In this document: piece after piece, positions 26,902-59,701 of the stretch
Layout of the letters: each line of letters opens with the position of its first letter
Position numbering within the stretch: the stretch's first letter is position 1
Assembly: GCA_021798985.1 (NCBI GenBank)
Contig: JAJZBI010000011.1
Location: forward strand, 23,775-87,774
Source of the DNA: Actinomycetes bacterium
Lineage (GTDB): Bacteria; Actinomycetota; Acidimicrobiia; Acidimicrobiales; Bog-793
Reading direction: 5' to 3'
Length of the DNA: 64,000 bases
Program-made: the position numbers and the translations under genes
The notes under the pieces: generated by a model
What the model saw: the letters and a program-made list of their open reading frames with translations, nothing else
Database searches by the model: none
What the model was told of the DNA's origin: nothing

Positions 26902-26904
26902 GCC

Positions 26905-38872: not shown

Positions 38873-39007
38873 TGACGCCAGTCCCCGGGCGAGGGACCTT
38901 TGGCCCCCTCACCGTTTCCTGCGCGCCCGTAGCGTCGCCCGCGACGGGCTTGCACACCTCGCCACGTGCCGGCTCGTGGAGCCCGAGGGCGGCAGGGAGC
39001 GGAGGCG

Positions 39008-39541
39008 ATGACGAGCGCAACAGCGGACGCCGTCGGGGCCAGGGGCACGCCAGGGGTGCCAGCGGGCCCAGCGCATCCAAGCGAGGACCGGCGCTGGCGC
39101 CAGGTCGACGTGCGGATCCGCCGGCTCGGGGCCCGGCCCGACGGCCTCATCGAGGTGCTCCACACCCTCCAGCAGCTCTTCGGCTACCTCGATGACGACG
39201 CGCTTGCCTATGTGAGCGAGGCGCTCGGGGTGCCGCCCAGCCAGGTGATGGGCGTAGCGACCTTCTACTCGTTCTTCGTTTTGAAGCCTCAGGGCGCCCA
39301 CACCTGCGTCGTGTGCACCGGGACCGCCTGCTACCTGAACGGCGCGAAGGCGATCCTGCGGGCGCTTCGCGAGGCCCTTGGCGTCGAGGTCGGCGGGACC
39401 ACCGCGGACGCGAGCCTCTCGCTGCTCGGCGCTCGCTGCCTCGGCGCCTGCTCGCAGGCACCCGCCGTGGTGCTCGACGGCGAGGTGCACGGCAAGGTGC
39501 TTGCCGAGGAGATCACCGCACTGGTGGCGAGCCATGCCTGA
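39008..39541 (+). CDS. hoxE: bidirectional [NiFe] hydrogenase diaphorase subunit HoxE (NuoE-like 2Fe-2S)
   Basis: ATG 39008 follows GGAGG. Thioredoxin-like 2Fe-2S motifs CTGTAC...CLGAC. Confidence 0.88.
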
Positions 39542-41198
39542 GCCCGACGACGCCCCGGCCCGAGCGCGCCACCACGAGCCTGTGCTCCCCGAGGGCCCGG
39601 TGCGTGCCACGGCGAACGTCTGCCACGCCGCCGGATGCCTCTCGCTCGGCTCCGACCTCGTCTTCGACCGCCTCTGCGAACGCGTCGAGGCGTCGGGCAC
39701 CGACGACGTGGGGGTGCGCCGGGTCGGCTGTCTCGGCCTGTGCGCGCAGGGCCCGCTCGTGAAGGTGCCCGAGCACGACCGCCTCTATGCCAAGGTGCCC
39801 GCCGAGCCCGACGAGCTCGATCAGCTCGTGGAGCAGTTCCGCTCGGGGACCGGCGGCCTCGTCGTCTCCGAGGACCCCTTCTTCGCCCGCCAGGTCAAGG
39901 TGGTCCTCCGCCACTGCGGGTCGGTCGATCCCGAGGAGGTCGAGGACTACGTCGCCAAGGGGGGATACGCGGCGCTGCGCAGGGCGGTGACGGAGATGAC
40001 CCCCGAGGAGGTCGTCGCTGAGGTCACCGAGAGCGGGCTGCGCGGGCGCGGCGGTGCCGGCTACCCGACCGGCCTCAAGTGGGCGACCGTCGCCAAGTCC
40101 GGCGAGGGCGGCCACAAGTACGTGGTCTGCAACGCCGATGAGGGGGATCCGGGGGCCTTCATGGACCGCAGCGTGCTCGAGAGCTGCCCGCAACAGGTGC
40201 TCGAGGGCATGGCGATCGCCGCCTATGCCGTCGGCGCCAACGAGGGCTACGTGTACGTGCGCGCCGAGTACCCCCTTACGGTCCGGCGGCTCAACTCGGC
40301 GATCCGCCAGGCCGAGCGCGCCGGGCTGCTCGGCACGGCGATTGCCGACACGAGCTTCTCGTTCCACCTCGAGGTGCGCATCGGTGCCGGGGCCTTCGTC
40401 TGTGGCGAGGAGACCGCCTTGTTGGCCTCGATCGAGGGTCGGCGGGGGACGCCCCGGCCGCGCCCGCCCTATCCCGCCGCCGCAGGGCTGTTCGGCGAGC
40501 CGACGCTCATCAACAACGTCGAGACCTTCGCCAGCATCTCGGCGATCATCGAGCGCGGCGGGCGGTGGTACGCGGCGATCGGCGCCAACAAGAGCCGCGG
40601 GACCAAGGTCTTCGCGCTCGCCGGGGCGGTCGAGCGCACCGGGCTGATCGAGGTGCCGATGGGCCTCAGCCTGCGCCAGATCGTCTTCGAGATCGGCGGC
40701 GGCGTGCCCGGCGGGCACCGCTGCAAGGCCGTGCAGACCGGCGGCCCCTCGGGAGGCTGCATCCCCGAGGAGCTGCTCGACATGCCGGTCGACTACGAGT
40801 CCCTCGTGAGCGCCGGGTCGATCATGGGCTCTGGCGGCATGATCGTGATGGACGAGACGACCTGCATGGTCGACGTCGCCCGCTACTTCATGGACTTTTG
40901 CCGAGAGGAGTCCTGCAGCCGGTGCGTCCCCTGCCGGGCGGGAACCGTCCAGATGCACCGGCTGCTCGATCGCATCTGCTCGGGCCTCGCCACCCGCGCC
41001 GACCTCGAGCGCCTCGAGCGCCTTGCGGCGATGGTCCAGCGCGCGAGCCTGTGCGGCCTCGGCCAGGGCGCGCCGAGCACCGTGTTCTCGACGCTCCGCT
41101 ACTTCAAGGACGAATACCTCGCCCACATCGATCACCGGACGTGCCCGGCCGGGGTGTGCGAGATGGCCCCGTTTGAGATGGCGGGGAGTGGACGATGA
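39534..41198 (+). CDS. hoxF: diaphorase subunit HoxF (NuoF-like, FMN/NAD(P)H)
   Basis: ATG 39534 overlaps the hoxE end by 8 nt. [23 protein letters not shown] and an N-terminal 2Fe-2S domain. Confidence 0.92.
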
Positions 41199-41899
41199 GC
41201 GTCGTCACGCTGGTGATCGACGGGCACGACGTCGCCGGTCAGAGCGGCCAGAGCATCTTGTCGGTAGCGCGCGAACACGGCATCGCCATCCCAACGCTGT
41301 GCCATCTCGATGGGCTCTCGGAGGTGGGCGCGTGCCGCCTGTGCATGGTCGAGGTGCGGGGGGCGAGGCGCCCGCTCGCCGCCTGCGTCACCGAGGTGCA
41401 AGAGCACATGGAGGTGACGACCACCACCGACGAGCTCACCGACTACCGCCGCCAGATCATCGAGCTGTTGTTCACCGAGCGCAATCACGTCTGCGCCGTC
41501 TGCATCGCCAACCGGCACTGCGAGCTGCAAGACCTCGCCAAGGCGCTCGGGATGACGCACTTCGACCTGCCGGCGCTCAATCCGTCCGCCGGCGTGGACG
41601 CCAGCCACGAGCGCTTCGGGATCGACCACAACCGCTGCGTGCTCTGCACGCGATGCGTGCGCGTCTGCGCCGAGATCGAAGGAGCCCATACCTGGGACGT
41701 GCGCGGCCGGGCCAGCGAGGCGAGGGTGATCACCGACCTCGGCACCCCCTGGGGAGAGTCGCCCACCTGCACGAGCTGTGGCAAGTGCGTCCAGGTGTGC
41801 CCGACCGGAGCGCTGTTTGAGAAGGGTCGGGCGGTCGCCGAAGGCAAGGAGCGGCGCCCCTACGTCCCCTTCCTCGTCGCAAGGAACCGGAGGTCTTGA
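41195..41899 (+). CDS. hoxU: diaphorase subunit HoxU (NuoG N-terminal-like Fe-S protein)
   Basis: ATGA overlap. 2Fe-2S (CHLDGL..GACRLC) and 4Fe-4S ([23 protein letters not shown]) motifs. Confidence 0.9.
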
Positions 41900-41900
41900 G

Positions 41901-42431
41901 ATGGCAAAGCCGCGGCTCGCCACGATTTGGCTGGACGGCTGCTCTGGCTGTCACATGTCCTTCCTCGACCTCGACGAGCGCCTCTTCGACGTCTTCGCCC
42001 GCGCCGAGCTCGTCTATGGTCCCCTGGTCGACGCCAAGGAGTTCCCCGAGGATGTCGACGTCACGCTCGTCGAGGGCGCCGTCAGCACCGAGGACGACCT
42101 GCGTCGGGTGCGCGAGGTGCGCGCCAAGACCAAGATCCTCGTCTCGCTCGGCGACTGTGCGGTGACGGCGAACGTCCCGGGCATGCGCAACCCGCTCGGC
42201 CCGAAGGCGATCTTGGAGACCGCCTACGCGAGCGGCGTCACGGGCGCGTCGGCGGCGCCGAGCGAATGGGTCCCGGCGCTGCTCGAGCGCGTGCAGCCCG
42301 TGCACGCGGTTGTGCCGGTCGACGTGTACCTGCCGGGGTGCCCGCCCTCGGCCGACGTGATCGCCGAGGCGATCGACCAGCTGCTCGCCGGTCAGCTGCC
42401 TGACACCGCGCACCTGGCGAGCTTCGGCTGA
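41901..42431 (+). CDS. hoxY: [NiFe] hydrogenase small subunit HoxY
   Basis: ATG 41901, 1 nt after the hoxU stop. WLDGCSGCHMSFLD proximal-cluster motif and GCPP. Confidence 0.9.
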   Translation: MAKPRLATIWLDGCSGCHMSFLDLDERLFDVFARAELVYGPLVDAKEFPEDVDVTLVEGAVSTEDDLRRVREVRAKTKILVSLGDCAVTANVPGMRNPLGPKAILETAYASGVTGASAAPSEWVPALLERVQPVHAVVPVDVYLPGCPPSADVIAEAIDQLLAGQLPDTAHLASFG

Positions 42432-42450
42432 GCCGGACAAGGACGATGCG

Positions 42451-43869
42451 ATGAGCGAGATCATCATCGAGCCGGTCACAAGGATCGAGGGCCACTCCAA
42501 GATCACGGTGCAGCTCGACGACACCGGCGAGGTCGTCGACGCCCACTTCCACGTGACCCAGTTCCGCGGCTTCGAGCGGATCTGCGTGGGCCGCCCGCTC
42601 TGGGAGATGCCCTCACTGATGGCGCGCATCTGCGGCATCTGCCCCGTCAGCCATCTGATCGCGTCAGCGAAGGCCTGCGACGAGATCCTCGCCGTCGAGA
42701 TCCCTCCGCTGGCACGCCGGCTGCGGCGCGTCATGAACCTGGCGCAGATCGTGCAATCCCATGCCCTGAACTTCTTCCATCTCTCCTCGGCTGACCTCGT
42801 CTTCGGCTTCGACGGGGACCCGAAGGAGCGCTCCTTCGCGGGGGTGGCCGAAGCCGCCCCCGAGCTCGCTCGCGACGGCGTGGCGCTGCGGCGCTTCGGC
42901 CAGCAGATCATCGAGCGGCTCGGCGGCAAGCGCATCCACCCGGCCTGGGTCGTTCCCGGCGGGGTGAGCCGCCCGCTCGAGGCCGCCCAGCGCGACGCGA
43001 TCCTCGCCGAGGTGCCCGACGCGAGAGCACGAGCCAAGCGGGCCCTTGGCTGGTACAAGGAGCACCTCGCTCGCTTTGCCGAAGAAGCGGACCAGTTCGG
43101 CAACTTCCCGAGCCTGTTCATGGGGCTCGTGCACGAGAGCGGGCGGGCTGCTTATTCCGAAGGCTTGTTGAAGGTGGTCGACGCCAATGGCTGGGTGCTG
43201 GCGGACCAGGTCGATCCCAGGCCGTATTGGGAGTATCTCGGCGAGCACGTCGAGCCGTGGAGCTATCTGAAATCGCCGTATTTCAAGCCGCTCGGCTACC
43301 CCGATGGCCTCTACCGGGTCGGTCCGCTCGCCCGGCTGAACGTCATCGACCGGCTCGGGACTCCGAGCGCGGACGGCGAGCTCGCCGAGTACCGCGAGCG
43401 GCTCGGCCGCTATCCCCAGAGCTCGTTCCACTACCACTGGGCACGGCTCATCGAGATCGTGCACTGCATCGATGCAATCGAGCACATCCTCTCCGAGCCG
43501 GACATCTTGGACCACCACGTTCGCGCCGAGGCGCGCGTCAACCGCAACGAGGGAGTCGGCGTTGCCGAGGCGCCGAGGGGGACGCTCATCCACCACTACC
43601 AAGTGGACGACCACGGCCTCGTCGAGTCCGCCAACCTCGTCATCGCGACCGGCCACAACAACCTGGCGATGAACGCCGCGGTGAAGCAGGTGGCCCGCCA
43701 CTACGTCCACGGCCCGGACGTGGCCGAAGGGATCTTGAACCGGATGGAGGCGGCCATCCGCTGTTTTGACCCCTGCCTCAGCTGCTCGACGCATGCGATC
43801 GGACAGATGCCGCTTGCGATCGAACTGCGCGCCCCCGACGGCACGATCGTGCGCGAGGTGGCGCGGTGA
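42451..43869 (+). CDS. hoxH: [NiFe] hydrogenase large subunit HoxH (group 3d type)
   Basis: L1 RICGICPVSH and L2 DPCLSCSTH, followed by a 24-aa C-terminal extension. Confidence 0.93.
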   Translation: MSEIIIEPVTRIEGHSKITVQLDDTGEVVDAHFHVTQFRGFERICVGRPLWEMPSLMARICGICPVSHLIASAKACDEILAVEIPPLARRLRRVMNLAQIVQSHALNFFHLSSADLVFGFDGDPKERSFAGVAEAAPELARDGVALRRFGQQIIERLGGKRIHPAWVVPGGVSRPLEAAQRDAILAEVPDARARAKRALGWYKEHLARFAEEADQFGNFPSLFMGLVHESGRAAYSEGLLKVVDANGWVLADQVDPRPYWEYLGEHVEPWSYLKSPYFKPLGYPDGLYRVGPLARLNVIDRLGTPSADGELAEYRERLGRYPQSSFHYHWARLIEIVHCIDAIEHILSEPDILDHHVRAEARVNRNEGVGVAEAPRGTLIHHYQVDDHGLVESANLVIATGHNNLAMNAAVKQVARHYVHGPDVAEGILNRMEAAIRCFDPCLSCSTHAIGQMPLAIELRAPDGTIVREVAR

Positions 43870-44357
43870 GCGCGCCAGCGCCTGCTCCGACCCGCGACCG
43901 TCTCGCCGGGCTCGTCGTGGTAGGCGTCGGTAACGAGCTGCGCCGCGACGACGGCATTGGTGTCGCCGTCGCCCGGGCGCTGTCGGGCTCGTTCGGCGAG
44001 CTCGGGGCGCGCGTCGTGCTCTTGCACCAGCTCGTGCCGGAGCTGGCAGCGGAACTCACCGGCGCACAGGCCGTGATCTTTCTCGACGCGGCGGTCGATC
44101 TCCCGCCGGGTGCGGTGCGCGTCGCGACCCCTGCCCCGGGGAAGGTGCCGGGGTCCGCGACCCACCAGACAGAGCCCGACGCGCTCGTCGATTTGTGCGC
44201 GGCGCTGTATGGAACGAGGCCCGCGGCGATGATCGTGTCCGTCGGGGCCGCAGATCTCGAAGCGGGGGTCGGGCTCAGCACGGCTGCCCGCCAAGGTTGC
44301 GAACGCGCGGGCGAGATCGTCCGCGCCCTCGCTGAGGAGATGATCGCCGATGCATGA
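43866..44357 (+). CDS. hoxW: hydrogenase maturation endopeptidase (HoxW/HyaD family)
   Basis: GTGA overlap. VVGVGNELRRDDGIGV motif. Confidence 0.85.
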   Translation: MSAPAPAPTRDRLAGLVVVGVGNELRRDDGIGVAVARALSGSFGELGARVVLLHQLVPELAAELTGAQAVIFLDAAVDLPPGAVRVATPAPGKVPGSATHQTEPDALVDLCAALYGTRPAAMIVSVGAADLEAGVGLSTAARQGCERAGEIVRALAEEMIADA

Positions 44358-44682
44358 GTACTCGCTTGTGACCGAGCTGGTGGAAGAGTGCCAGCGGCGC
44401 GCCGGGTCGCGCCGGGTGCGCAGTGTCACGGTGCGATGCCCCTCGACCGTTGACCGGGTCGAGCTGAAGACGCTGTTCGCTGCGGCCTCGGCGGAGCACC
44501 ACATGGCCGGTGCGCGCCTTGAGATCGAGACGGTGGCAACTCTGTGGCACTGCACGTGTGGCTACGAGGGGGAGCTTCCGCCCGAGGCGCGCGTGGGTCA
44601 CCTGGCGGTGTGCCCGCGCTGCAGTTCCGTGCAACCGCTCGAGGACGCCCTCGAGCTGGTCGCCGTGGATACCGAGACCTAG
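44350..44682 (+). CDS. hypA: hydrogenase nickel-insertion protein HypA
   Basis: MHEYSL N-terminus (Ni site) and a CTCG...CPRC zinc site. It overlaps hoxW by 8 nt. Confidence 0.88.
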   Translation: MHEYSLVTELVEECQRRAGSRRVRSVTVRCPSTVDRVELKTLFAAASAEHHMAGARLEIETVATLWHCTCGYEGELPPEARVGHLAVCPRCSSVQPLEDALELVAVDTET

Positions 44683-44723
44683 GGAGACCTTCGCCGAAGC
44701 GGCGAAGGTCCAAGCGCCCTAGG
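44678..44723 (+). terminator. extended hairpin between hypA and nifJ
   Basis: GACCTTCGCCG-aag-CGGCGAAGGTC perfect 11-bp stem (44686-44710), flanked by CCTAGGG/CCCTAGG (44678-44684 / 44717-44723). There is no U-tract. Confidence 0.4.
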
Positions 44724-44776
44724 CGCCGATGCTCGGCCGGCGATACACCGGGACGAGCCACCCGAGGAGGCATGGC

Positions 44777-47700
44777 GTGAACAGCCCACAGCGCATCTGT
44801 GTCGACGGGAACGAGGCGGCGGCGCGGGTCGCCTACCAGCTGGCCGAGGTGGTCGCGCTCTACCCGATCACCCCGTCGTCTCCGATGGGAGAGCATGCTG
44901 ACGACTGGGCGGCGGCGGGCACGCCGAACCTGTTCGGCCAGGTGCCCGCCATCGTCGAGATGCAGTCCGAAGCCGGCGCTGCCGGAGCGCTGCACGGCGC
45001 CCTGCAGAAGGGCGCGCTCGCCACCACCTTCACGGCCTCCCAGGGGCTGTTGTTGATGTTGCCGAACATGTTCAAGATCGCCGGCGAGCTGCTGCCGACG
45101 GTGATCCACGTGGCGGCGCGCAGCATCGCCACCCACGCGCTGTCGATCTTCGGGGACCACTCCGACGTGATGGCGGCGCGGGCGACGGGCTTTGGGATGC
45201 TCGCGTCCTCCTCGGTCCAAGAGGCACAAGATCTCGCTGCCATCGCCCACCTCGCGACGCTGCGCTCGCGCGTGCCGTTCCTGCACTTCTTCGACGGCTT
45301 CCGGACCTCCCACGAGGTGGCGACGATCGTGCCGCTTCAGCCTGGTGATCTCGAGGCGCTGGTGGACCGCGAGGCGATCCGCGCCATGCGCCTGCGCGGC
45401 ATGAGCCCCGACCGCCCCGATGTGCGGGGCACCGCGCAGAACCCCGACGTCTTCTTCCAAGGCCGCGAGGCCGCCGCGCCCTACCACGCCCGGGTGCCTG
45501 CGATCGTGACGGCGGCGATGGACGCCTTCGAGCGTCGCTGTGGTCGGCATTACGCCGTGGTCGAGTACCACGGCGCCCCCGACGCCGAGCGCGTCGTCGT
45601 GGCGATGGGGTCGGGATGCGGGGCGATCGAAGAGGCGGTCGACACCTTGGTGGCGCGGGGCGAGCGGCTCGGGCTGTGCAAGGTACGCTTGTACCGTCCC
45701 TTCCCCGCGGGCGAGTTCGTCGCTGCCCTGCCGCCGAGCGTGCGGGCGATCGCAGTCCTCGATCGCACCAAGGAGCCCGGTGCGGTCGGCGAGCCCCTCT
45801 ACCTCGATGTGCGCGCCGCCATCGACGAGGCGATGGAGCACACCGAGGCGCCCTTTGTGGTCGCCCCGAAGGTGATCGGCGGCCGCTATGGGCTGTCGTC
45901 CAAGGAGTTCACCCCACCGATGGCCAAGGCCGTCTTCGACGAGCTCGCTGCCGCCTCCCCCAAGGCGCACTTCAGCGTCGGGATCGACGACGACGTCTCG
46001 TCCTCGAGCCTTGCCGTAGACCCCGACTTTCGCGTGGAGATCGCCGAAGCGCCCTTCCAGGCGGTCTTCGCCGGCCTCGGTTCGGACGGGACGGTGGGGG
46101 CGAACAAGAACAGCGCCCGCATCATCGCCGCCCACGGTGATACGAACGTGCAGGCCTATTTCGTCTACGACTCGAAGAAGTCCGGATCGATCACGATCTC
46201 GCACCTTCGATTCGGCCCCCGGCCGATCAATTCGAGCTACCTCATCGACGAGGCGGATTTCGTCGCCTGCCACCAGTTCAATCTGCTCGAGCGGGCCAAG
46301 GTGCTCGACATCGCGCGACCGGGCGCGACCTTGCTGTTGAACAGCCCGTACCGTGCGGAGGAGACCTGGCACGCGCTGTCGGCGCGCGCCCAGCGCCAGA
46401 TCCTCGACAAGAAGCTCCGCTGCTTTGTGATCGACGCCCACCAGATCGCGAGCGAGCACGGCCTCGGCACGCGGATCAACACCGTCATGCAGGTCTGCTT
46501 CTTCGCCCTCAGCGAGCTGATGCCGATCGAACAGGCCGTGGCGGCAATCAAGGCGGCGATCGAGCGCAGCTATGGTCGCCGGGGCCCCGAGGTCGTCGCG
46601 CGCAACTTCGCTGCGGTGGATGCTGCGCTGGCCGGCTTGCAGCCGCTCGAGACACCGATGCGGTTCGCGGCGGAGCCGGCGCCGCCGCGAGCTCCCGAGG
46701 ACCGCTTCGCCGGGGCGCCGGACTTCGTCCGTGAGGTGACGGCGGTCTTGCTCGCCGACGACGGGGACCGCCTGCCGGTCTCGGCGATGCCGCCCGACGG
46801 CCGTTTCCCCTCGGGCACGGCGCGCTACGAGCGTCGGGCGATCGCCAGCGAGATCCCGATCTGGGACCCCTCGCTGTGCACGGACTGCGGCAAGTGCGCC
46901 ATCGTCTGCCCGCACGCCGCGATCCGCATGAAGGTCTTCGAGCCCGACGCGATCACCGGCGCGCCCGACGGGTTTCTCGCCAAGCCCTTCCGTTCGAAGG
47001 ACCTCGCCGGGCACCTGCTCAGCATCCAGGTGGCGCCGGACGACTGCACGGGATGTGGGATCTGCGTCGAGGTCTGCCCGGCGCACTCCAAGACCGAGGC
47101 GTGGAGGAAGTCGATCAATCTCGAGCCGGCGCTCGCGCACCGCGACGAGGAGCGGGTGCGCTGGGACTTCTTCAAATCGATCCCCGAGCTTGCCCGCGAC
47201 GCCCTGCCGCACGACAGCGTGAAGGGCGCGGCGGTCCTCGAGCCGCTCTTTGAGTTCTCTGGCGCCTGCGCGGGGTGTGGCGAGACCCCCTACCTCAAAC
47301 TGTTGAGCCAGCTCTTCGGCGACCGGCTGCTCGTCGCCAACGCGACGGGGTGCTCGTCGATCTACGGCGGCAATCTCCCGACCACGCCGTGGGCGCACGA
47401 CGCGTCGGGCCGCGGACCGGCGTGGGCGAACTCGCTGTTCGAGGACAACGCCGAGTTTGGCCTCGGCATCCGCCTCGGCCTCGAGGCCGAACAGCGCGCG
47501 GCACGCGACCTGCTCGTCGGACTCGCCCCCGAGCTCGACGCCGAGCTCGTCGCCGGTCTGTTGCACGCGAGCCAGGAAGGCGAGGCCGACATCGTTGCGC
47601 AGCGGGCGCGGGTGGCCGAGCTAAAGCGCCAGCTTTCCGGCCTCGGCGGCGAGCGCGCCGAGGCGGCCTCGGACCTGCTGGCGTGCGCCGACGAGCTCGT

Positions 47701-48412
47701 CGACAAGTCGGTGTGGATCGTCGGCGGAGACGGCTGGGCCTATGACATCGGCTTCGGCGGCCTCGACCACGTCCTTGCCTCGGGGCGCAACGTCAACGTC
47801 TTGGTGCTCGATACCGAGGTCTACTCCAACACCGGTGGGCAGGCGTCCAAGGCCACGCCGCGCGGCGCCGTGGCGAAGTTCGCGGCCTCGGGCAAGATCA
47901 CCGCGAAGAAGGACCTCGGGGAGATCGCGCGGGCCTACGGCGACGTCTACGTGGCCCAGGTGGCCCTCGGCGCGAGCGACATCCAGACGATCAAGGCGCT
48001 CCTCGAGGCGAACGCCCATCCCGGCCCCTCCCTCGTGATCGCGTACTCGACGTGCATCGCGCACGGCATCGACATGGCGACCTCGATGGCGCACCAGCGT
48101 GACGCGGTGCGCAGCGGGTACTGGCCGCTGTATCGCTACCGGCCGACGACGGCGAGCGAGGGGCATCCCTTCAGCCTCGACGCGAAGGATCCGAGCGTCC
48201 CGATCGCCGACTTCGTCAAGAGCGAGGTTCGCTACGCCTCCCTTGCCCGGAGCGACCCCGCGCGCGCCAGCGAGCTGGTGGAGCTGCTGCAGCAAGACAC
48301 CGAGGAGCGCTGGCGTTACTACCGCCAGCTGGCGGGGCTGGAGCGGACGATGCACGAGCCGGACGCCGAACTTTCGGCCGGCAGGGTCCAGGTGATCGAG
48401 GAGGAGCAGTGA
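44777..48412 (+). CDS. nifJ: pyruvate:ferredoxin (flavodoxin) oxidoreductase, monomeric NifJ/PFOR type
   Basis: GTG 44777, 6 nt after GAGGAGG. About 1211 aa with PFOR domains I-VII. Internal 2x CxxCxxCxxxCP and a TPP GDG motif (GGDGWAYDIG). Confidence 0.95.
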   Translation: MNSPQRICVDGNEAAARVAYQLAEVVALYPITPSSPMGEHADDWAAAGTPNLFGQVPAIVEMQSEAGAAGALHGALQKGALATTFTASQGLLLMLPNMFKIAGELLPTVIHVAARSIATHALSIFGDHSDVMAARATGFGMLASSSVQEAQDLAAIAHLATLRSRVPFLHFFDGFRTSHEVATIVPLQPGDLEALVDREAIRAMRLRGMSPDRPDVRGTAQNPDVFFQGREAAAPYHARVPAIVTAAMDAFERRCGRHYAVVEYHGAPDAERVVVAMGSGCGAIEEAVDTLVARGERLGLCKVRLYRPFPAGEFVAALPPSVRAIAVLDRTKEPGAVGEPLYLDVRAAIDEAMEHTEAPFVVAPKVIGGRYGLSSKEFTPPMAKAVFDELAAASPKAHFSVGIDDDVSSSSLAVDPDFRVEIAEAPFQAVFAGLGSDGTVGANKNSARIIAAHGDTNVQAYFVYDSKKSGSITISHLRFGPRPINSSYLIDEADFVACHQFNLLERAKVLDIARPGATLLLNSPYRAEETWHALSARAQRQILDKKLRCFVIDAHQIASEHGLGTRINTVMQVCFFALSELMPIEQAVAAIKAAIERSYGRRGPEVVARNFAAVDAALAGLQPLETPMRFAAEPAPPRAPEDRFAGAPDFVREVTAVLLADDGDRLPVSAMPPDGRFPSGTARYERRAIASEIPIWDPSLCTDCGKCAIVCPHAAIRMKVFEPDAITGAPDGFLAKPFRSKDLAGHLLSIQVAPDDCTGCGICVEVCPAHSKTEAWRKSINLEPALAHRDEERVRWDFFKSIPELARDALPHDSVKGAAVLEPLFEFSGACAGCGETPYLKLLSQLFGDRLLVANATGCSSIYGGNLPTTPWAHDASGRGPAWANSLFEDNAEFGLGIRLGLEAEQRAARDLLVGLAPELDAELVAGLLHASQEGEADIVAQRARVAELKRQLSGLGGERAEAASDLLACADELVDKSVWIVGGDGWAYDIGFGGLDHVLASGRNVNVLVLDTEVYSNTGGQASKATPRGAVAKFAASGKITAKKDLGEIARAYGDVYVAQVALGASDIQTIKALLEANAHPGPSLVIAYSTCIAHGIDMATSMAHQRDAVRSGYWPLYRYRPTTASEGHPFSLDAKDPSVPIADFVKSEVRYASLARSDPARASELVELLQQDTEERWRYYRQLAGLERTMHEPDAELSAGRVQVIEEEQ

Positions 48413-49458
48413 GCACCGACACGGCGACCACGCGCGAGCAGACCGATCTGTCGACGCGCTATCTCGGGTTGGATCTGTCCTCGCCGATCGTGGCCTCGGC
48501 GAGCCCGATGACCGAGCACGTGGATTCGATCGTGGCGCTCGAGGCTGCCGGGGTCGGCGCCGTCGTCTTGCCGTCGCTGTTCGAGGAGGAGATCCTCGCG
48601 GAAGAGCACATGGTGGACTCCGCCTTCGAGCTCGGGGCTGAGCAGCACTACGAGGCGCGTGGCTACTTCCCGCTGCCGAGCGAGGTGCGAGGGGTGGCGG
48701 AGCGCTACGTGGGCCGGCTCGAGGCCGCCAAGGCCGCCGTGCGCATCCCGGTAATCGCGAGCCTCAACGCCTGGCACGCCGGCGCCTGGAGCCGCTACGG
48801 CCGTCTGCTGGCCGACGCCGGCGCCGACGCCATCGAGCTCAACGTCTATCGCGTCGCGACGAACGAAAAGCTGTCGGCGGCCGAGCTCGAAGCGGCCGAG
48901 CTCGCCTTCATCGCCGAGGTCTGCGAGCGGGCCGGGGTTCCCGTCGCGGTCAAGCTGTCGCCGTTCTACTCCTCCTTTGCCAATTTCGCCGCCAAGGTGG
49001 TGGCCGCCGGGGCGAGCGGGCTCGTGCTCTTCAATCGCTTCTACCAACCCGACCTCGACCTCGAGACCATGGAGGTGCTGCCGAGGGTGCACCTGTCGAG
49101 CAGCACCGAGCTCGGCTTGCCGCTGCGCTGGACGGCGATCTTGCGCCCACAGCTCGGTGAGGAGGTCTCCTTGGCGGCGAGCTCAGGGGTCGAGCACGGC
49201 AGCGACGTGGCGAAGCTGATCGCGGCGGGAGCCGACGTCGTCATGGTGGCCTCCGAGCTGCTGCGCAGCGGTGCGCGCGGGGCAGCCACGCTCGAGGCAT
49301 CGCTGCGCGACGCGATGGAGCTGACCGGCCACGCCACACTCGCCGAGCTGCACGGCTGTGCCAGCCGCGCCAGCGCGCCCCGCGGCGAGGCGTTCGAGCG
49401 GGCGCAGTACGTGAGGACGCTGCGGTCCTGGGGGGCAGGGCTCACCGGCCATCGGTGA
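48409..49458 (+). CDS. dihydroorotate dehydrogenase-like flavoprotein (PyrD-family TIM barrel, function unknown)
   Basis: GTGA overlap with the nifJ stop. N-terminus DLSTRYLGLDLSSPIVASASP...AVVLPSLFEEEI is typical of the 'DHOD-like protein' family. Confidence 0.8.
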   Translation: MSTDTATTREQTDLSTRYLGLDLSSPIVASASPMTEHVDSIVALEAAGVGAVVLPSLFEEEILAEEHMVDSAFELGAEQHYEARGYFPLPSEVRGVAERYVGRLEAAKAAVRIPVIASLNAWHAGAWSRYGRLLADAGADAIELNVYRVATNEKLSAAELEAAELAFIAEVCERAGVPVAVKLSPFYSSFANFAAKVVAAGASGLVLFNRFYQPDLDLETMEVLPRVHLSSSTELGLPLRWTAILRPQLGEEVSLAASSGVEHGSDVAKLIAAGADVVMVASELLRSGARGAATLEASLRDAMELTGHATLAELHGCASRASAPRGEAFERAQYVRTLRSWGAGLTGHR

Positions 49459-49481
49459 AGACAGAGGCAAAAGGAGCGGAG

Positions 49482-49715
49482 ATGAAGGTGTGGATCGACC
49501 AGGAGTACTGCACGGGTGACGGGCTGTGCGAGGAGCTGTGCCCGGCGATGTTCCAGCTCGAGGACGACGGTTTGGCCTACGTCAGGGAGAACGGCGTCGT
49601 CCCGAGCGACCGCGCGGGGCGCGAGGCGATGGTTGTCGTCTCAGGTGAAGACGAGGAAGCGGTGCGCGAGGCGGCACAAGAGTGCGCCGGGGAGTGCATC
49701 TTCATTGAGGAGTGA
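49482..49715 (+). CDS. single-cluster ferredoxin (CxxDxxC...CP type)
   Basis: ATG 49482 follows AAAGGAG. CTGDGLCEELCP plus a distal C-terminal Cys. 77 aa, with an acidic C-terminus. Confidence 0.85.
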   Translation: MKVWIDQEYCTGDGLCEELCPAMFQLEDDGLAYVRENGVVPSDRAGREAMVVVSGEDEEAVREAAQECAGECIFIEE

Positions 49716-49722
49716 GGCTCGG

Positions 49723-49746
49723 GGCGGCGCGGCGCGCCGCGCCGCT
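49723..49746. terminator. GC palindrome between convergent ferredoxin and cNMP-binding genes
   Basis: GGCGCGGC-GC-GCCGCGCC perfect palindrome (49726-49743), extended by flanking pairs. Confidence 0.4.
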
Positions 49747-49754
49747 CGGCGCGC

Positions 49755-50345
49755 TCAGGCGTCGGTGCGCTCTTGACTGAGCTCCGCCAGCCGCCAGCGC
49801 GTGGCCTGCAGTCGCTCGAGCAGCAGCGCGCTCACCCGGGACATGAGGGCGTAGCCGAAGTCCCGGTCGCGCTCGGCAAGGGTGCGTAGGCTGTTCGCGT
49901 CGACGGCGATCGCGCGGACCGGGCCGATGGCGCGGGCGTCGAAGTGCCAGCGGTAGGGGGGGAACAGCCACGACCAGCCGAGCGCGGCGCCGGGCCCGAG
50001 CGTCTCGATGCGGATCCTCCCGTTGCCGAACTGGGCGGACTCGAGCGCAACGTGGCCGCGGCGGATGAAGTAGAGCGCGTCCGCGGGCTCGCCTTCGGTG
50101 AGCAACAGTCGCCCCCCGCCGAAGTCGACCGTCGTCGTGAACCCGGAGATGGCGTCGGCGACGTCGCCGGGGAGGTCCGACAACAGCGGGTGCATGGCCA
50201 CGATCTCGGGCAAGGTGCGCGCCCCGGCGCCGTCGAAGATCCCACCGGTGGCGCTCGGGCGCCCCTCGGTTTCGAAGGGGTCTTCGAGGGAATCGAAGGC
50301 GACTGCCTCGCCGATGAGGTCGCGGATCGAACGCTTGACAGACAT
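49755..50345 (-). CDS. cyclic-nucleotide-binding domain protein without a recognisable DNA-binding domain
   Basis: ATG 50345. cNMP beta-barrel (LLLTEGEPADALYFIRRGHVAL...RIETLGPGAALGWSWL). No C-terminal HTH is visible. Confidence 0.75.
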   Translation of the reverse strand: MSVKRSIRDLIGEAVAFDSLEDPFETEGRPSATGGIFDGAGARTLPEIVAMHPLLSDLPGDVADAISGFTTTVDFGGGRLLLTEGEPADALYFIRRGHVALESAQFGNGRIRIETLGPGAALGWSWLFPPYRWHFDARAIGPVRAIAVDANSLRTLAERDRDFGYALMSRVSALLLERLQATRWRLAELSQERTDA

Positions 50346-50584
50346 GGATCGATCATGTCGCCATGGCAACTGCAAGGAATGGGCCGATGGTGGCTTGATG
50401 CGCGGCCGAATGTCGGCGGGCGTATGGCTCCATTGAGGCCTTGTGTCTCCGGCACGGTGACCTTCGCCCCTTACGAGTTCGCGCCTTCGGGCGCATCGTG
50501 ACCCGGGAAGCGTTGATGGCCTCTTCCACCAGGCGCTTGTAGTGCCGCGAGCGGGCACTGCCCGCGGCCCGAAAGGAGCGGCAG

Positions 50585-51589
50585 ATGACGATCAAGATCG
50601 GCATCAACGGCTTTGGGAGAACGGGACGGGCGCTGTATCGGGCGATCCTCGAGCGCCACTTGTACATGGAGGTCGTCGCGATCAACGATCTCGACGACCC
50701 TCAGTCGCTGACCCGCCTGCTGCGGGCGGACTCGGTGCACGGCCCGTACCGTGCGCCGCTACGGCTCGAGGGGGACCAGCTTGTCACCGAGCATCAGCAC
50801 ACGCGGTTCCTGCGCGAGCCAGACAGCACCCAGCTCCCCTGGAAAGAGCTGGGGGTGCAGGTGGTGGCTGAGTGCACGGGGACCGTCTCGACGCGAAGCG
50901 ATGCCGCCCGGCACCTCGAGGCGGGAGCCGAGCGGGTCGTCGTCTCGGCGCCCTGTGAGGATGCCGATGCCACCTTCGTCCTCGGGGTCAACGAGGAGCG
51001 CTTCGATCCCCTTTCCCATTACGTCGTCTCGAACGGCTCGTGCACGACCAATTGCGTGGCGCTGCTCGCCAAGGTGCTCGACGAGTCCTTCGGGATCGAC
51101 TCAGGCCTGATGACGACGGTGCACGCCTACACGAGTGACCAGGCGCTCCTTGACCGCCTGCACGACGACCCACGCCGCGGCCGCGCGGCGGCACTGAACA
51201 TCGTCCCCACGACGACGCGGGCCGCCCGGACGACCGGTCGCGTCCTGCCCTCGCTCGCCGGTCGCATGGACGGAGCGGCGCTGCGCGTGCCCGTCGCCGA
51301 TGGCTCGATCGTGGACCTCGTCGCGCTGGTGGAGCACGCGGTCCGCCCCGAAGAGGTCAACGAGGCCTTCCGCTCCGCCGCGGAGGGGCGCCTCGGGCAC
51401 GTCCTCGGCTACAGCGAGGAGCCGCTCGTCTCGAGCGACATCCTCGGCGATCCTGCGTCGTGCGTCTTCGACCCGTCGCTCACGCTCGTGCAGGGACGCC
51501 TCGTCAAGGTCTTCGGTTGGTACGACAACGAGTGGGGCTACTCGAACCGCCTCGCAGAGCTCTGCGCGTTGCTTGCGTCCCGCGGTTGA
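50585..51589 (+). CDS. gap: type I glyceraldehyde-3-phosphate dehydrogenase
   Basis: INGFGRTGR, the SNGSCTTNC catalytic Cys motif and WYDNEWGYS. Confidence 0.95.
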   Translation: MTIKIGINGFGRTGRALYRAILERHLYMEVVAINDLDDPQSLTRLLRADSVHGPYRAPLRLEGDQLVTEHQHTRFLREPDSTQLPWKELGVQVVAECTGTVSTRSDAARHLEAGAERVVVSAPCEDADATFVLGVNEERFDPLSHYVVSNGSCTTNCVALLAKVLDESFGIDSGLMTTVHAYTSDQALLDRLHDDPRRGRAAALNIVPTTTRAARTTGRVLPSLAGRMDGAALRVPVADGSIVDLVALVEHAVRPEEVNEAFRSAAEGRLGHVLGYSEEPLVSSDILGDPASCVFDPSLTLVQGRLVKVFGWYDNEWGYSNRLAELCALLASRG

Positions 51590-51610
51590 CAGGAGAACAG
51601 GAGCATCAGC

Positions 51611-54025
51611 ATGAACAACTCGCACTACGTCCGCTTCTTCTCAGAGATCGGCATCGACGACGTCCCGATCGTCGGCGGGAAGAACGCCTCGCTCGGGGAG
51701 ATGTACCGCGGGCTTGCCGACGAGGGCGTGCGCGTGCCGAACGGCTTCGCGCTGACGGCAGATGCCTACCGCCATACCCTCAGCGAGGCAAAGGCGTGGG
51801 AGCGGCTGCATGAGGCGCTCGACGGACTCGATCCCGACAACGTCGCAGACCTCGCCCGGCGCGGGCGGCGCGCCCGTGAGATCGTCTACGGCGCACCGCT
51901 TCCCCACGACGTGATCGGCGAGATCCTCGGGGCCTACCGCCAGCTCCAGCAAGAGTACGGCGACGACGTCCGTCTGGCGGTGCGCTCATCGGCCACCGCC
52001 GAGGACCTGCCGACGGCCAGCTTTGCCGGCCAGCAGGAGACCTTCCTCAACATCAGCGGCGAGGAGAGCCTGCTCGACTCGATCCGGCGCTGCTTCGCCT
52101 CGATGTTCACCGACCGCGCCATCCACTACCGCATCGACCAGGGATTCGACCACTTCAAGGTGGCGCTCTCGGTCGGCATCATGAAGATGGTCCGGTCCGA
52201 CATCGCCTCCTCGGGCGTGGTCTTCACCATCGACACCGAGTCGGGCTTCTCCGACGTGGTCTTCATCACCGGCTCCTATGGGCTCGGCGAGAACATCGTC
52301 CAGGGCGCCGTCGACCCCGATGAGTTCTACGTGCACAAGCCCACCTACGCCGCGGGACACCGGACCGTGCTGCGCCGGCTGATGGGGGAGAAGGGCGTGA
52401 AGATGGTGCTCGTCGAGGGCGAGACGCGCCAGACCACGCGCAACGTCCCCACGCCGCGAGCCGACCGCGAGCGCTACTGCCTGAGCGACGACGAGGTGCT
52501 CGAGCTCGCCGGCTACGCGATGGCGATCGAGCGGCACTACGGGCGCCCGATGGACATCGAGTGGGCCAAGGACGGCAGCGACGGCAAGATCTACCTCGTC
52601 CAGGCCCGCCCCGAGACGGTCGCCTCCCAACGGAGCGGGACCACGCTCGAGCGCTACGTCATCGACGAGCCCGGCGAGGTCTTGATCGAGGGCCGCTCGG
52701 TCGGCGAGCGGGTCGCGCTCGGCAACATCCGGGTGATCGACAACCTCCAGCAGCTATCGAGCTTCGTTCCCGGCGAGGTGCTCGTCGCCGACACGACGAC
52801 GCCGGACTGGGAGCCGGTGATGAAGACCGCCGCGGCGATCGTCACCAACCGCGGGGGACGGACCTGCCATGCCGCGATCATCGCCCGCGAGCTCGGGATC
52901 CCCGCCGTAGTCGGCTGCTCGAGCGCGACGACGACGCTCACCTCGGGCGAGCGCGTCACGGTGTCGTGTGCCGAGGGGGATACCGGCCGCGTCTATCGGG
53001 GCGAGGTCCCCTTCCGCATCGAGCGGACCGAGCTCGCGACGCTGCGCCGACCGAAGACCGAGATCATGATCAACCTCGGCAACCCTGACCTCGCCTTCAA
53101 GACGTCCTTCTTGCCGAACGACGGGGTCGGGCTGGCGCGCATGGAGTTCATCATCAGCGAGTCGATCCGTGCCCACCCGCTCGCCCTGCTGCACCCCGAG
53201 AAGGTCACCGACCCCGCCGAGCGGGCGATCATCGACCACCTCACCGCCTGCTACAGCGACGGCGGCGAGTTCTTCGTCGAGCGCCTGTCTGAGGGCATCG
53301 GCACGATCGCGGCGGCGTTCTGGCCAAAGCCGGTCGTGGTGCGGATGTCGGACTTCAAGACCAACGAGTACGCCAGCCTGGTCGGCGGGCGCGCCTTCGA
53401 GCCGGCCGAGAGCAACCCGATGCTCGGCTGGCGCGGCGCCTCGCGCTACGCGCACCCGGCCTATGCTGAGGGTTTCGCGCTCGAGTGCCAGGCGATGCGC
53501 AGGGTGCGCGAGGAGATGGGCTTCACCAACGTGATCTTGATGTTGCCCTTCGTCCGCCGGGTCGACGAGGCGCGCCAGGTGCTCGACAAGATGGCCGAGT
53601 TCGGCCTGCGCCGTGGCGAGAACGACCTCAAGGTCTACGCCATGTGTGAGATCCCGAACAACGTCGTGTTGATCAACCGCTTCGCGGAGCTCTTCGACGG
53701 CTTCTCGATCGGCTCGAACGACCTCACCCAGCTCACCTTGGGCGTCGATCGCGACAGCGAGATCGTCGCCTTCGACTACGACGAGCGAGACGAGGGCGTG
53801 AAGGAGATGATCAAGCTCGCCGTCGTGGGCTGCCGCGAGAACCACATCCATTCCGGCCTGTGCGGCCAGGCGCCGTCGGACTACCCGGACATGGCCGAGT
53901 ACCTGGTCGAGCTGGGCATCGACTCGATCAGCCTCAACCCCGACACGGTGCTCAAGACGACGAGCCTCGTCGTCGAGCTCGAGGAGCGGCTCGAGCGCGA
54001 GCCGCGACCCGTCGCGGCATCGTGA
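51611..54025 (+). CDS. ppsA: phosphoenolpyruvate synthase (pyruvate, water dikinase)
   Basis: 804 aa. ATP-grasp N-domain, a phosphohistidine swivel ([17 protein letters not shown]) and a PEP-utilising C-domain. Confidence 0.95.
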
Positions 54026-57898: not shown

Positions 57899-57985
57899 CG
57901 GAGCGAGCCTTTCAGTGAAGGGGGAAGCGCAGGAGCCGGGCGGCAACCGGGGGCGCCGGTCGGTGCCCCCGGTTGCCGATTCGGC

Positions 57986-59464: not shown

Positions 59465-59701
59465 ATGCGGCCCGACGAGTCGTGGATGGACGAGGCGGCG
59501 TGTCGCGGACGGTCGCCCGAGCTGTTCTACGCGAACGACGAGGTGCTGCTGCGTGCCGCAGTGCAGGTCTGCTCGAGCTGCCCGGTCCGCCGCCAATGCC
59601 TCGAGTACGCGCTCAGCTACGGCATCGAGGACGGCGTGTGGGGTGGCCGTACCGAGCGCGAGCGGCGGCGGATGCTGCGATCGATGCGCCGGAGCGCATA
59701 G
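59465..59701 (+). CDS. WhiB-family (Wbl) Fe-S transcription factor
   Basis: Four Cys (C...CSSCPVRRQC), a GVWGG turn and a basic tail. GGAGGAG lies before the ATG. Confidence 0.92.
   Translation: MRPDESWMDEAACRGRSPELFYANDEVLLRAAVQVCSSCPVRRQCLEYALSYGIEDGVWGGRTERERRRMLRSMRRSA

Follow-up and report, generated by a model that had tools for sequence, protein, structure and literature searches.

The HoxEFUYH hydrogenase of Synechocystis and the hypoxia-induced DosR island of Mycobacterium smegmatis are the described systems closest to the locus analyzed here, a 15-kb run of genes within a 64-kb stretch of DNA (the window) from contig JAJZBI010000011.1 of an Acidimicrobiales bacterium. The locus encodes a Hox [NiFe]-hydrogenase with maturation proteins, pyruvate:ferredoxin oxidoreductase (PFOR, the nifJ product), a protein resembling dihydroorotate dehydrogenase (DHOD), a ferredoxin, a cyclic nucleotide monophosphate (cNMP)-binding protein, glyceraldehyde-3-phosphate dehydrogenase (GAPDH), and the phosphoenolpyruvate (PEP) synthase PpsA. 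Synechocystis HoxEFUYH is reported to evolve H2 only from NADH and reduced ferredoxin together, and to reduce both NAD+ and ferredoxin with H2; the two donors were attributed to GAPDH and PFOR, and AFM, single-Phe, and GGPSG motifs together with [2Fe-2S] motifs in HoxE and the HoxF N terminus were named for this enzyme (preprint, June 2026, bioRxiv 10.64898/2026.06.25.734504). In the same organism, hox and the nifJ operon are transiently co-induced in microoxia (PMC11368403). Proximity of hox and nifJ in cyanobacteria was noted in 2010 for Arthrospira and Synechococcus WH 5701 and read as fermentative electron disposal (PMC2974642). The DosR-controlled genes msmeg_3926-3955 of M. smegmatis include the group 3b hydrogenase Hyd3/Hyh, the PEP synthase MSMEG_3934, universal stress proteins, DevR, and PfkB (PMC2799521; PMC11303327). 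During hypoxia, this PEP synthase is up 23-fold as mRNA and 70-fold as protein and PEP falls, a putative PFOR or 2-oxoacid:ferredoxin oxidoreductase (OFOR) is up, and pyruvate kinase and a putative pyruvate dehydrogenase are down (PMC2799521; bioRxiv 10.1101/2023.09.11.557286). The authors call the role of the PEP synthase unexplained (PMC2799521; PMC11303327; bioRxiv 10.1101/2023.09.11.557286).

On the basis of the sequence comparisons described below, we favor with moderate confidence a reading in which the locus would be the core of an actinobacterial low-oxygen redox island of the DosR/DevR type, its separately transcribed units serving hypoxia-induced fermentative H2 release. Under oxygen limitation, the NAD-type GAPDH would form NADH from triose phosphate, and PFOR with its coupled DHOD-like flavoprotein would oxidize pyruvate to acetyl-CoA and CO2 while reducing the 77-residue ferredoxin. 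HoxEFUYH, a group 3d enzyme of the Synechocystis type, would then merge the electrons of NADH and reduced ferredoxin into H2. Such H2 release would in turn allow glycolysis and substrate-level ATP synthesis to continue without a terminal electron acceptor.

Gene layout and protein assignments

Coordinates are positions in the window, which has a G+C content of about 72%, and genes were picked by third-position G+C and profile searches. All 13 genes of the locus were identified by profile searches against NCBIfam, TIGRFAM, and Pfam in the order given in Table 1, and their boundaries are identical in the public gene calls for the source contig. The first-pass annotation of this DNA, made from the letters, had proposed these genes, this order, spacings of 94 nt between hypA and nifJ and of 21 nt between gap and ppsA, and a 15-kb same-strand run broken only by a small antisense cNMP gene; profile searches and coordinates confirmed all of this, and the run is real. 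Neighboring genes from hoxE to hypA overlap or lie at most 19 nt apart, and nifJ overlaps the DHOD-like gene by 4 nt, through which the latter is predicted to be translationally coupled to nifJ. The identical layout was found in a metagenome-assembled genome (MAG) contig of GCA_027357925.1 (102 kb), in an independent Logan assembly of SRR13201267 from the same sample, and in separate ENA and NCBI assemblies of a sister species whose DHOD-like protein is 88% identical. With two species and no fewer than four independent assemblies showing the same arrangement, an assembly artifact is excluded.

The hydrogenase was assigned to group 3d HoxEFUYH by the presence of both nickel motifs in HoxH (RICGICPVSH at residues 59-68 and DPCLSCSTH at 440-448), a cleavable C-terminal tail, NuoE/F/G-like subunits, a short HoxY, and a HoxW protease. 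The tail, predicted to be cleaved by HoxW, extends 24 residues past DPCLSCSTH, and the 176-residue HoxY has only four cysteines, at positions 14, 17, 86, and 147. HoxU scored 375 bits against NF005745 (cut-off 333), HoxE scored 216.5 bits against NF005747, just under the cut-off of 224, and HoxF matched Complex1_51K and NADH_4Fe-4S. The complete motif set of the confurcating Synechocystis enzyme is present, with AFM at HoxF residues 208-210, GAGAF with its single Phe at 284-288, GGPSG at 403-407, and [2Fe-2S] motifs in the HoxF N terminus (C30x4C35...C66x3C70) and in HoxE (C103x4C108...C144x3C148). The Hox enzyme of the window may thus likewise confurcate NADH and reduced ferredoxin. Among solved structures, the best relative of HoxF is 7t2r_B (657 bits), and HoxH scored 548 bits with 7t2r_D and 447 bits with 5xf9_D; we take 7t2r/7t30 to be the electron-bifurcating NiFe-HydABCSL of Acetomicrobium mobile. 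A classical Bfu/HydABC(SL) enzyme was considered and rejected, as HoxF is missing the C-terminal 2x[4Fe-4S] domain of the B subunit. The alignment to 7t2r_B stops at HoxF residue 543 of 554 and chain residue 537 of 597, so that 11 HoxF residues remain, and HoxF ends 11 residues past its CPAGVC motif. In 7t2r_B, about 60 C-terminal residues form the 2x[4Fe-4S] ferredoxin domain.

PFOR is a single-chain enzyme of the NifJ type, with a full-length TIGR02176 match (1662 bits against a cut-off of 911, covering residues 24-1202 of a longer 1227-residue reading from the ATG at 44729), two [4Fe-4S] motifs of the form CxxCxxCxxxCP at residues 701 and 757, and a thiamine pyrophosphate (TPP) domain; its Pfam matches are POR_N, PFOR_II, POR, EKR, Fer4, and TPP_enzyme_C. 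The next protein scored 371 bits against NF005741 (‘DHOD-like protein’, cut-off 303). In a profile alignment to 1ep1_A, it places ELNVYRVA opposite the catalytic ELNISCPN of DHOD B, and it has only two cysteines and no iron-sulfur motif. A bona fide dihydroorotate dehydrogenase was rejected because the catalytic Cys/Ser loop is absent; the protein appears to be a flavin mononucleotide (FMN) barrel of another kind. The 77-residue ferredoxin carries the motif CxxDxxCxxxCP, which we take to be the pattern of Pyrococcus furiosus ferredoxin, and is a candidate for the electron carrier from PFOR to Hox.

GAPDH scored 390 bits against TIGR01534 (cut-off 367) and is assigned to the type I NAD-dependent enzymes by its catalytic cysteine (SNGSCTTNC) and by the NAD-type aspartate of the VAIND motif (VVAINDL), which points to a preference for NAD. 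Its gene is not followed by pgk. PpsA scored 1168 bits against NF005057 (cut-off 598) and 1115 bits against TIGR01418 (cut-off 740), and the three-domain architecture and phospho-histidine motif of PEP synthases are present. The cNMP protein is a stand-alone binding domain to which no domain for DNA binding is joined. Its phosphate-binding cassette, read by eye, is non-canonical at the usual Gly-Glu and Arg-Ser/Thr residues, so nucleotide binding is doubtful. We know of no hydrogenase role for stand-alone proteins of this kind.

Conserved neighborhoods and an exchangeable hydrogenase slot

To place the PFOR–DHOD-like pair, 80 loci around homologs of the DHOD-like protein were fetched from species-representative genomes, and gene context was compared within 10 kb. 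PFOR ends at most 400 nt upstream of the DHOD-like gene in 66 of the 68 loci having at least 3.6 kb of upstream sequence. The pair spans at least eight phyla, including Actinomycetota, Chloroflexota, Cyanobacteriota, Verrucomicrobiota, Bacteroidota, and Acidobacteriota, and thus appears ancient and near-universal. Described examples are the Synechocystis nifJ operon (sll0741 nifJ, sll0743, sll0744), which includes a ‘dihydroorotate dehydrogenase’ gene (PMC11368403), and Propionibacterium, in which one transcript carries PFOR together with DHOD-like and GltD-like genes (PMC7650540). One of the two exceptions, a Chthoniobacteraceae locus (L059, 1-11000), has the DHOD-like gene without PFOR, and a PpsA homolog (60%) and HoxF/HoxU-like genes lie upstream. 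A general role for the ferredoxin as partner of the pair was rejected. Since it stands downstream of the DHOD-like gene in only 1 of 78 loci, it is most likely specific to the closer, hox-linked loci.

Of the 80 loci, 6, across five phyla, have hoxEFUYH no more than 10 kb away, in varied arrangements, either downstream of the pair or divergent from it (two Limnocylindrales, Trueperaceae, Terriglobales, Chlorogloeopsis, and Gloeobacterales). As a rough estimate, about 20 kb in 4 Mb of genome, scaled by the fraction of genomes that have hox, would yield far less than one such locus by chance. Acidimicrobiales and Dormibacterota commonly encode HoxH relatives at 70-78% identity, and three of these relatives (74-78%) were examined for context. 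Two carry PFOR and this ferredoxin type beside hox, with ferredoxin orthologs 57-59% identical to that of the window. In L169, the order is PFOR-DHOD-like-Fdx-hoxEFUYHW-hypA on one strand with gaps of 4-50 nt, which places the ferredoxin between the DHOD-like gene and hoxE. In L170, an Acidimicrobiales MAG, the order is hoxEFUYHW-hypA-PFOR-Fdx, that of the window without the DHOD-like gene and with the ferredoxin directly after PFOR; a NarL-family regulator gene follows. The third (L168) has hoxE divergent from an operon of gap, a three-subunit OFOR, and a GltD-like gene, its GAPDH being 63% identical to that of the window. The run in L169 (12604-21425) continues into heterodisulfide-reductase/MvhD-like genes (CCG, FlpD, and large Fer4/Pyr_redox proteins), which suggests a further electron-bifurcating partner for Hox there.

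The gap-ppsA side of the locus has a different distribution. None of the 80 PFOR–DHOD-like loci has gap followed by ppsA downstream within 10 kb, and any gap homolog occurs in only 2; the junction of nifJ with gap is thus specific to this genus. As a control for the usual context of gap, 51 loci were taken from a scan of metagenome contigs. These GAPDH relatives are at most 61% identical, which sets the GAPDH of the window apart as a distinct type; the usual pairing of gap with pgk is seen in 30 of the 51, and none has gap and ppsA paired on one strand. Closer GAPDH relatives (63-75% identity) were found by protein search in seven loci. The Dermatophilaceae isolate Sec6.4, a cultured relative, encodes a GAPDH at 67% identity. 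In three of the seven loci, L176 (75%), L174 (73%), and L171 (72%), a group 3b hydrogenase operon is divergent from gap-ppsA. L172 (69%) has OFOR, GltD, and gap in one operon; L173 (67%) has ppsA divergent from gap, among genes for a universal stress protein, an alcohol dehydrogenase, and a P-type ATPase; and L175 (67%) has gap beside OFOR-GltD and acyl-CoA synthetase fragments. Counting L168, seven independent lineages have this GAPDH type next to ppsA, an OFOR, or a cytosolic [NiFe]-hydrogenase, and an association that survives rearrangement in this way is the classic sign of functional linkage.

The flanking genes identify L171 as the same island as that of the window, with 71% identity for the α/β hydrolase, 81% for PpsA, 80% for the universal stress protein, 75% for the GltD-like protein, and 70% for the alcohol dehydrogenase. 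In L171, the interval from the hydrolase gene to gap is occupied by an operon on the minus strand whose best matches are sulfhydrogenase subunits of group 3b, in the order beta, cNMP, gamma, delta, alpha, protease, hypC. The cNMP gene of the window is orthologous (56-60% identity) to the cNMP gene embedded in the 3b operon of these relatives (L171 8078-8545, L174 4810-5277, L176 8063-8533), which lies between the beta and gamma genes and overlaps its neighbors in two of them. The antisense gene is therefore best explained as a retained piece of a 3b operon that apparently gave way, in this genus, to the hox-hypA-nifJ-DHOD-like-fdx block. The cNMP gene and gap-ppsA flank the hydrogenase slot in both the 3b and the hox versions. 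The 3b arrangement is likelier to be ancestral, because three relatives have it and a mycobacterial precedent exists. The cNMP protein has 42 extra residues at its N terminus; that these are a leftover of the lost 3b beta subunit was considered and rejected, as no similarity was found.

Transcription units, a shared upstream box, and the wider island

At least three transcription units on the plus strand, plus one antisense gene, make up the locus. The units are hoxEFUYHW-hypA, nifJ-DHOD-like-fdx, the antisense cNMP gene, and gap-ppsA, and they are separated by hairpins. A single operon was rejected on account of the antisense gene, the hairpins after hypA and fdx, and the 239-nt divergent promoter region before gap, which is shared with the cNMP gene and is 91% conserved between the two species. 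A perfect 16-bp stem-loop downstream of the α/β-hydrolase gene is likely the terminator of that gene and marks the left boundary of the hox unit. The hairpin directly after hypA was matched in stability by 0 of 200 shuffles and remains pairable in the sister species through G-U wobbles (alignment read by eye); it is read as a terminator, an attenuator, or an RNA-stabilizing element between hox and nifJ. Between the convergent fdx and cNMP genes, a third hairpin, weakly better than shuffles (z = -1.9), is likely a two-way terminator. A scan of 38.7-54.4 kb for sigma-70 promoters and intrinsic terminators gave 0 promoters and 4 terminator-like sites against 4.3 expected and is uninformative at 72% G+C. 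The Rfam scan found no RNA family inside the locus.

Only a comparison of the gap upstream region between genomes brought out a sequence shared by hoxE and gap. In this region, only GGTGACCTTCG(C/G)CCCTT is conserved between the window and L171, and its core KGACCTTYGSCCC, allowing at most one mismatch, occurs at only two sites in the 64 kb, at 38894 before hoxE and at 50458 before gap. To avoid circularity, the scoring matrix was built from other genomes only. The gap box scored 22.6, a value reached by 0 of 19.2 million simulated positions, and the hoxE box scored 15.7, corresponding to a chance rate of 1.0e-6 per position or 1.6e-4 per 150-nt promoter region. The hoxE box is unchanged in the sister species, in which bases a few nt upstream differ. 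Matches to the core or matrix lie about 50-150 nt upstream of gap in L171, L174, L176, and L173, of the gap-OFOR operon and pfkB in L168, of hoxE in L170, of OFOR-GltD-gap in L172, of OFOR gamma in L175, of a short open reading frame heading the ppsA unit in L173, and, weakly, of PFOR in L169. Seven exact core matches were found in 1.98 Mb of other fetched loci, and six of the seven have an open reading frame just downstream. Four of these encode a universal stress protein, a Pyridox_ox_2 protein, a Zn-dependent alcohol dehydrogenase (divergent from PFOR), and a flavodoxin-like protein; of the remaining two, one encodes an AAA_33-domain protein and one has no family match.

The box resembles that of the DosR/DevR/OsdR regulators. 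Both sites in the window are palindromes of the GGGNCC-N4-GGNCCC type upstream of the prospective target operons. The published consensus of OsdR, the DevR ortholog of Streptomyces, is AGGGCCGATCGGCCCT, and the listed targets of OsdR include a pyridoxamine-phosphate-oxidase gene (PMC5069765). Counted by eye, 12-13 of 16 positions match this consensus, which comes from another genus. The acting regulator would presumably belong to the DevR/OsdR type, and the shared box predicts co-regulation of hoxE and gap. The mycobacterial DosR pattern GGGAC-N-GTCCC gave no informative matches. No word common to the hoxE, nifJ, and gap upstream regions was found at lengths/mismatches of 10/1, 12/2, or 14/3, which is fewer than in shuffles.

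The surrounding genes indicate that the 15-kb locus is a stretch of a larger low-oxygen/redox island. To the right of ppsA follow, in order, an MMPL transporter gene, three genes without a family match, and genes for WhiB (also in L171 and L174), a Zn-dependent alcohol dehydrogenase, a universal stress protein, a GltD-like protein, and OFOR; on the contig beyond the window lie OFOR alpha and gamma, Pyridox_ox_2, a GNAT/ADP-forming acyl-CoA synthetase-like gene, and cydAB-cydDC (L166). A second ferredoxin-linked operon is thus present on the minus strand from 61653 to 64000 and onward (L166 3887-11644), with genes for the acyl-CoA synthetase-like protein, Pyridox_ox_2, OFOR gamma, alpha, and beta, and the GltD-like protein; the universal stress protein and alcohol dehydrogenase genes come after it, and cydAB-cydDC lies beyond on the opposite strand. 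OFOR and the GltD-like gene recur beside this GAPDH type in L168, L172, and L175. These genes would belong to the same adaptation, adding to the ferredoxin-linked oxidation and providing for the formation of acetate or ethanol and for high-affinity respiration by cytochrome bd.

Additional features were observed elsewhere in the window. The three unmatched genes between the MMPL gene and whiB are consecutive on the minus strand (56315-59168; 527, 187, and 192 residues), and a weak box-like site lies at 59269, about 100 nt upstream of the first. To the left, at 24789-28323, hsp20 (minus strand) is divergent from pntAA-pntAB-pntB, which encode a proton-translocating transhydrogenase, and a weak DevR/OsdR-like match at 25305 between them has a score of 12.0, at chance level. 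In Synechocystis, pntAB belongs to the microoxic transient gene set (PMC11368403). A raiA RNA motif (Rfam RF03072) on the plus strand at 18538-18796 scored 128.8 bits against a gathering threshold of 101.3 and lies upstream of, and overlaps, the start of a miaA-like gene. Finally, F420 biosynthesis genes (cofD/fbiA-like and cofE/fbiB-like, 3455-5139), a PknB-type Ser/Thr kinase gene (35317-37242, minus strand), and lexA-nrdR (about 29.5-31.2 kb) are ordinary actinobacterial core context.

Table 1. Genes, predicted boxes, and stem-loops of the locus and the adjoining island (positions in the window)
Feature	Position	Strand	Description
stem-loop	38836..38872	+	perfect 16-bp stem, dG -35.4 kcal/mol, z = -6.6, just 3' of α/β-hydrolase gene
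DevR/OsdR-like box AGGGACCTTTGGCCCCC	38892..38908	+	3' end 99 nt upstream of hoxE
hoxE	39008-39541	+	NuoE-like [2Fe-2S] diaphorase subunit
hoxF	39534-41198	+	FMN/NADH subunit, 554 aa
hoxU	41195-41899	+	NuoG-N-terminal-like iron-sulfur subunit
hoxY	41901-42431	+	hydrogenase small subunit, PF01058
hoxH	42451-43869	+	[NiFe] large subunit, PF27537 HoxH
hoxW	43866-44357	+	maturation endopeptidase; TIGR00072 76 bits, cut-off 47
hypA	44350-44682	+	nickel metallochaperone; PF01155 51.8 bits
stem-loop	44686..44710	+	11-bp, GC-rich, directly 3' of hypA stop, dG -28.5 kcal/mol, z = -4.05
nifJ/PFOR	44777-48412	+	single-chain pyruvate:ferredoxin/flavodoxin oxidoreductase
DHOD-like	48409-49458	+	FMN TIM-barrel protein (predicted), NF005741
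ferredoxin (fdx)	49482-49715	+	77 residues, single cluster
hairpin	49713..49757	.	GC-rich, between convergent fdx and cNMP genes, dG -34.3 kcal/mol, z = -1.9
cNMP-binding gene	49755-50345	-	196 aa, stand-alone domain
DevR/OsdR-like box GGTGACCTTCGCCCCTT	50456..50472	+	3' end 112 nt upstream of gap
gap	50585-51589	+	type I GAPDH, NAD type
ppsA	51611-54025	+	pyruvate, water dikinase
WhiB-family regulator	59465..59701	+	also in L171, L174
Zn-dependent alcohol dehydrogenase	59881..60924	-	70% identical in L171
universal stress protein	61154..61600	-	80% identical in L171
GltD-like FAD/NAD(P) protein	61653..63296	-	C-terminal 2x[4Fe-4S] domain; last gene of three-subunit OFOR operon; 75% in L171
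OFOR beta (TPP) subunit	63296..64000	-	cut by window end

Direction of electron flow and relation to known systems

The first-pass annotation had read the locus as one module that either disposes of pyruvate-derived electrons as H2 or uses H2 to drive gluconeogenesis, and had pointed to gene neighborhoods in relatives as a check. The juxtapositions do recur, hox with PFOR in several phyla and the GAPDH type in seven lineages. A single module holds at the level of a regulon, supported by these neighborhoods and the shared box; the locus is not one transcription unit and is a mosaic within a larger island. Of the two directions, the gluconeogenic one is unproven, and the regulatory and neighborhood evidence leans to hypoxic fermentation. 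In the fermentative direction, we favor for PpsA either a supply of PEP or an ATP-yielding conversion of PEP to pyruvate in place of pyruvate kinase.

Several points weigh against fermentative H2 release under a common hypoxic control. The organism is known only as a MAG, and the functional reading is built from sequence. The assignment of the box relies on its resemblance to a published consensus, and neither a DevR-type regulator nor a sensor kinase could be found in the window, whose unannotated gaps also showed no response regulator. Upstream of nifJ there is no such box, only a half-match inside the hairpin that separates hypA from nifJ; co-expression of nifJ with hox is assumed, and nifJ probably depends on read-through or on a promoter of its own. 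The placement of gap-ppsA beside nifJ is confined to one genus. The precedent for confurcation by Hox is a single 2026 preprint on a cyanobacterial enzyme that works with a plant-type ferredoxin, and HoxF is without the classical HydB C-terminal ferredoxin domain. Finally, the usual direction of PpsA, toward PEP, fits a reductive pathway better than a fermentative one.

Such a reductive pathway, in which Hox would bifurcate electrons from H2 to NADH and reduced ferredoxin, and PFOR acting as pyruvate synthase, PpsA, and GAPDH would build sugars from acetate or acetyl-CoA, is possible, and we regard it as rather doubtful. PFOR is reversible, and all four functions would be useful in this direction, with PpsA in its usual one. 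Synechocystis HoxEFUYH does reduce NAD+ and ferredoxin together with H2, and the ADP-forming acyl-CoA synthetase-like gene of the island could activate acetate. However, the neighborhood (universal stress protein, WhiB, alcohol dehydrogenase, and cytochrome bd) and the shared box indicate a hypoxia or dormancy regulon, and in M. smegmatis, H2 evolution by the hydrogenase accompanies induction of PEP synthase and a drop in PEP. Additionally, neither the 64 kb nor the 10 kb beyond showed genes for CO2 fixation or regulators that sense H2, and GAPDH is of the NAD type rather than the NADP type typical of dedicated anabolic paralogs.

A bolder form of the fermentative reading, which we consider unlikely, is that the locus would be a confurcation cassette under DosR-type control with generators of both obligatory donors, in which PpsA would run backwards (PEP + AMP + Pi -> pyruvate + ATP) and replace pyruvate kinase in hypoxia, and in which single-chain PFORs across bacteria would require the DHOD-like protein as a redox partner. 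Backward operation of PpsA reportedly occurs in Thermococcus kodakarensis. If true of these islands, it would also explain the 70-fold induction of PEP synthase and the falling PEP in hypoxic M. smegmatis.

Mere adjacency, with the hox-nifJ block having landed in a recombination-prone slot beside gap-ppsA and the units being used independently, is improbable. The genus-limited junction, the hairpins and antisense gene between units, and a slot demonstrably exchanged between hydrogenase types would all be expected from it; against it, two hydrogenase classes occupy the same slot beside gap-ppsA, seven lineages keep this GAPDH type together with OFOR or hydrogenase genes although the gene order varies, and hoxE and gap share a box. 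It is also quite improbable that Hox is an aerobic NAD+-reducing uptake hydrogenase feeding respiration in the style of Cupriavidus, Rhodococcus, or Hydrogenophilus, with PFOR and ferredoxin in unrelated pyruvate catabolism. This role would suit a group 3d enzyme with a NuoF-type NADH site in a genome with aerobic traits (cytochrome bd, pnt transhydrogenase, F420 biosynthesis genes), but HoxE is present, HoxF and HoxH are closer to the bifurcating A. mobile enzyme than HoxH is to that of Hydrogenophilus, PFOR and ferredoxin are conserved beside hox, and the upstream box is of the hypoxia type.

The repeated placement of a hydrogenase beside an NADH-making GAPDH and a ferredoxin-reducing oxidoreductase lends independent comparative-genomic support, from outside cyanobacteria, to the claim that HoxEFUYH needs NADH and reduced ferredoxin jointly. 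These comparisons are also evidence that the hypoxia islands of Actinomycetota contain an exchangeable hydrogenase slot, filled by a 3b enzyme or by a 3d enzyme with PFOR, beside a conserved gap-ppsA operon, and the box offers a concrete, testable regulatory element common to these units. The comparison also sharpens the question of why PEP synthase is among the most strongly hypoxia-induced mycobacterial proteins.

Among known systems, the soluble NAD+-reducing hydrogenases (Hydrogenophilus thermoluteolus 5xf9, Cupriavidus necator, Rhodococcus opacus) share group 3d subunits with a NuoF/NuoG-like diaphorase, but the HoxH score with 5xf9 is lower. In aerobes these enzymes act in H2 uptake under air, and to our knowledge they have no separate HoxE and no PFOR/ferredoxin linkage. 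The NiFe-HydABCSL (7t2r/7t30)/HydABC Bfu family provides the best solved relatives of HoxH and HoxF and has in common with the latter the AFM, Phe, and GGPSG flavin pocket and the N-terminal [2Fe-2S] motif of the B subunit; unlike in that family, the C-terminal stretch of about 60 residues is absent from HoxF of the window, as it is from the Synechocystis enzyme. The Synechocystis-type system has the same five Hox subunits (53-61% identity to the cyanobacterial ones in L071 and L077), the same HoxF flavin-site motifs, and PFOR followed by a DHOD-like gene. However, in Synechocystis hox (sll1220-1226) and nifJ (sll0741) form separate operons under SigE, cyAbrB2, and LexA, and the ferredoxin is of the plant-type [2Fe-2S] kind, whereas in the window the genes are contiguous, gap-ppsA is attached, a CxxDxxC single-cluster ferredoxin is encoded within the unit, and the predicted control is a DevR/OsdR-like box. 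The DosR island of M. smegmatis likewise is a hypoxia island with a cytosolic bidirectional [NiFe]-hydrogenase, PEP synthase, and universal stress proteins, and L171, L174, and L176 bear a 3b version of the window's own island. Compared with the mycobacterial island, the window has a 3d Hox with PFOR and ferredoxin instead of the 3b enzyme, a GAPDH gene co-operonic with ppsA, and a cNMP-domain gene, and no DevRS genes are visible in it.

Our search of the literature available to us found no description of this cluster in Actinomycetota or Acidimicrobiia. The earlier suggestion that a single physical cluster would be unusual in an actinobacterial genome applies to the nifJ/gap-ppsA junction, which is genus-specific, and does not extend to the rest, as the Acidimicrobiales MAG L170 has hox-hypA-PFOR-fdx in the same order and M. 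smegmatis has a comparable island. The locus is therefore a variant of the cyanobacterial hox/nifJ regulon and the mycobacterial Dos island rather than a new kind of system. What is new relative to both is the close joining of a Hox of the Synechocystis type to the enzymes that generate its two donors, the shared DevR/OsdR-like box, and the exchange of 3b for 3d hydrogenase within an island that is conserved in other respects, an exchange that accounts for the antisense gene.

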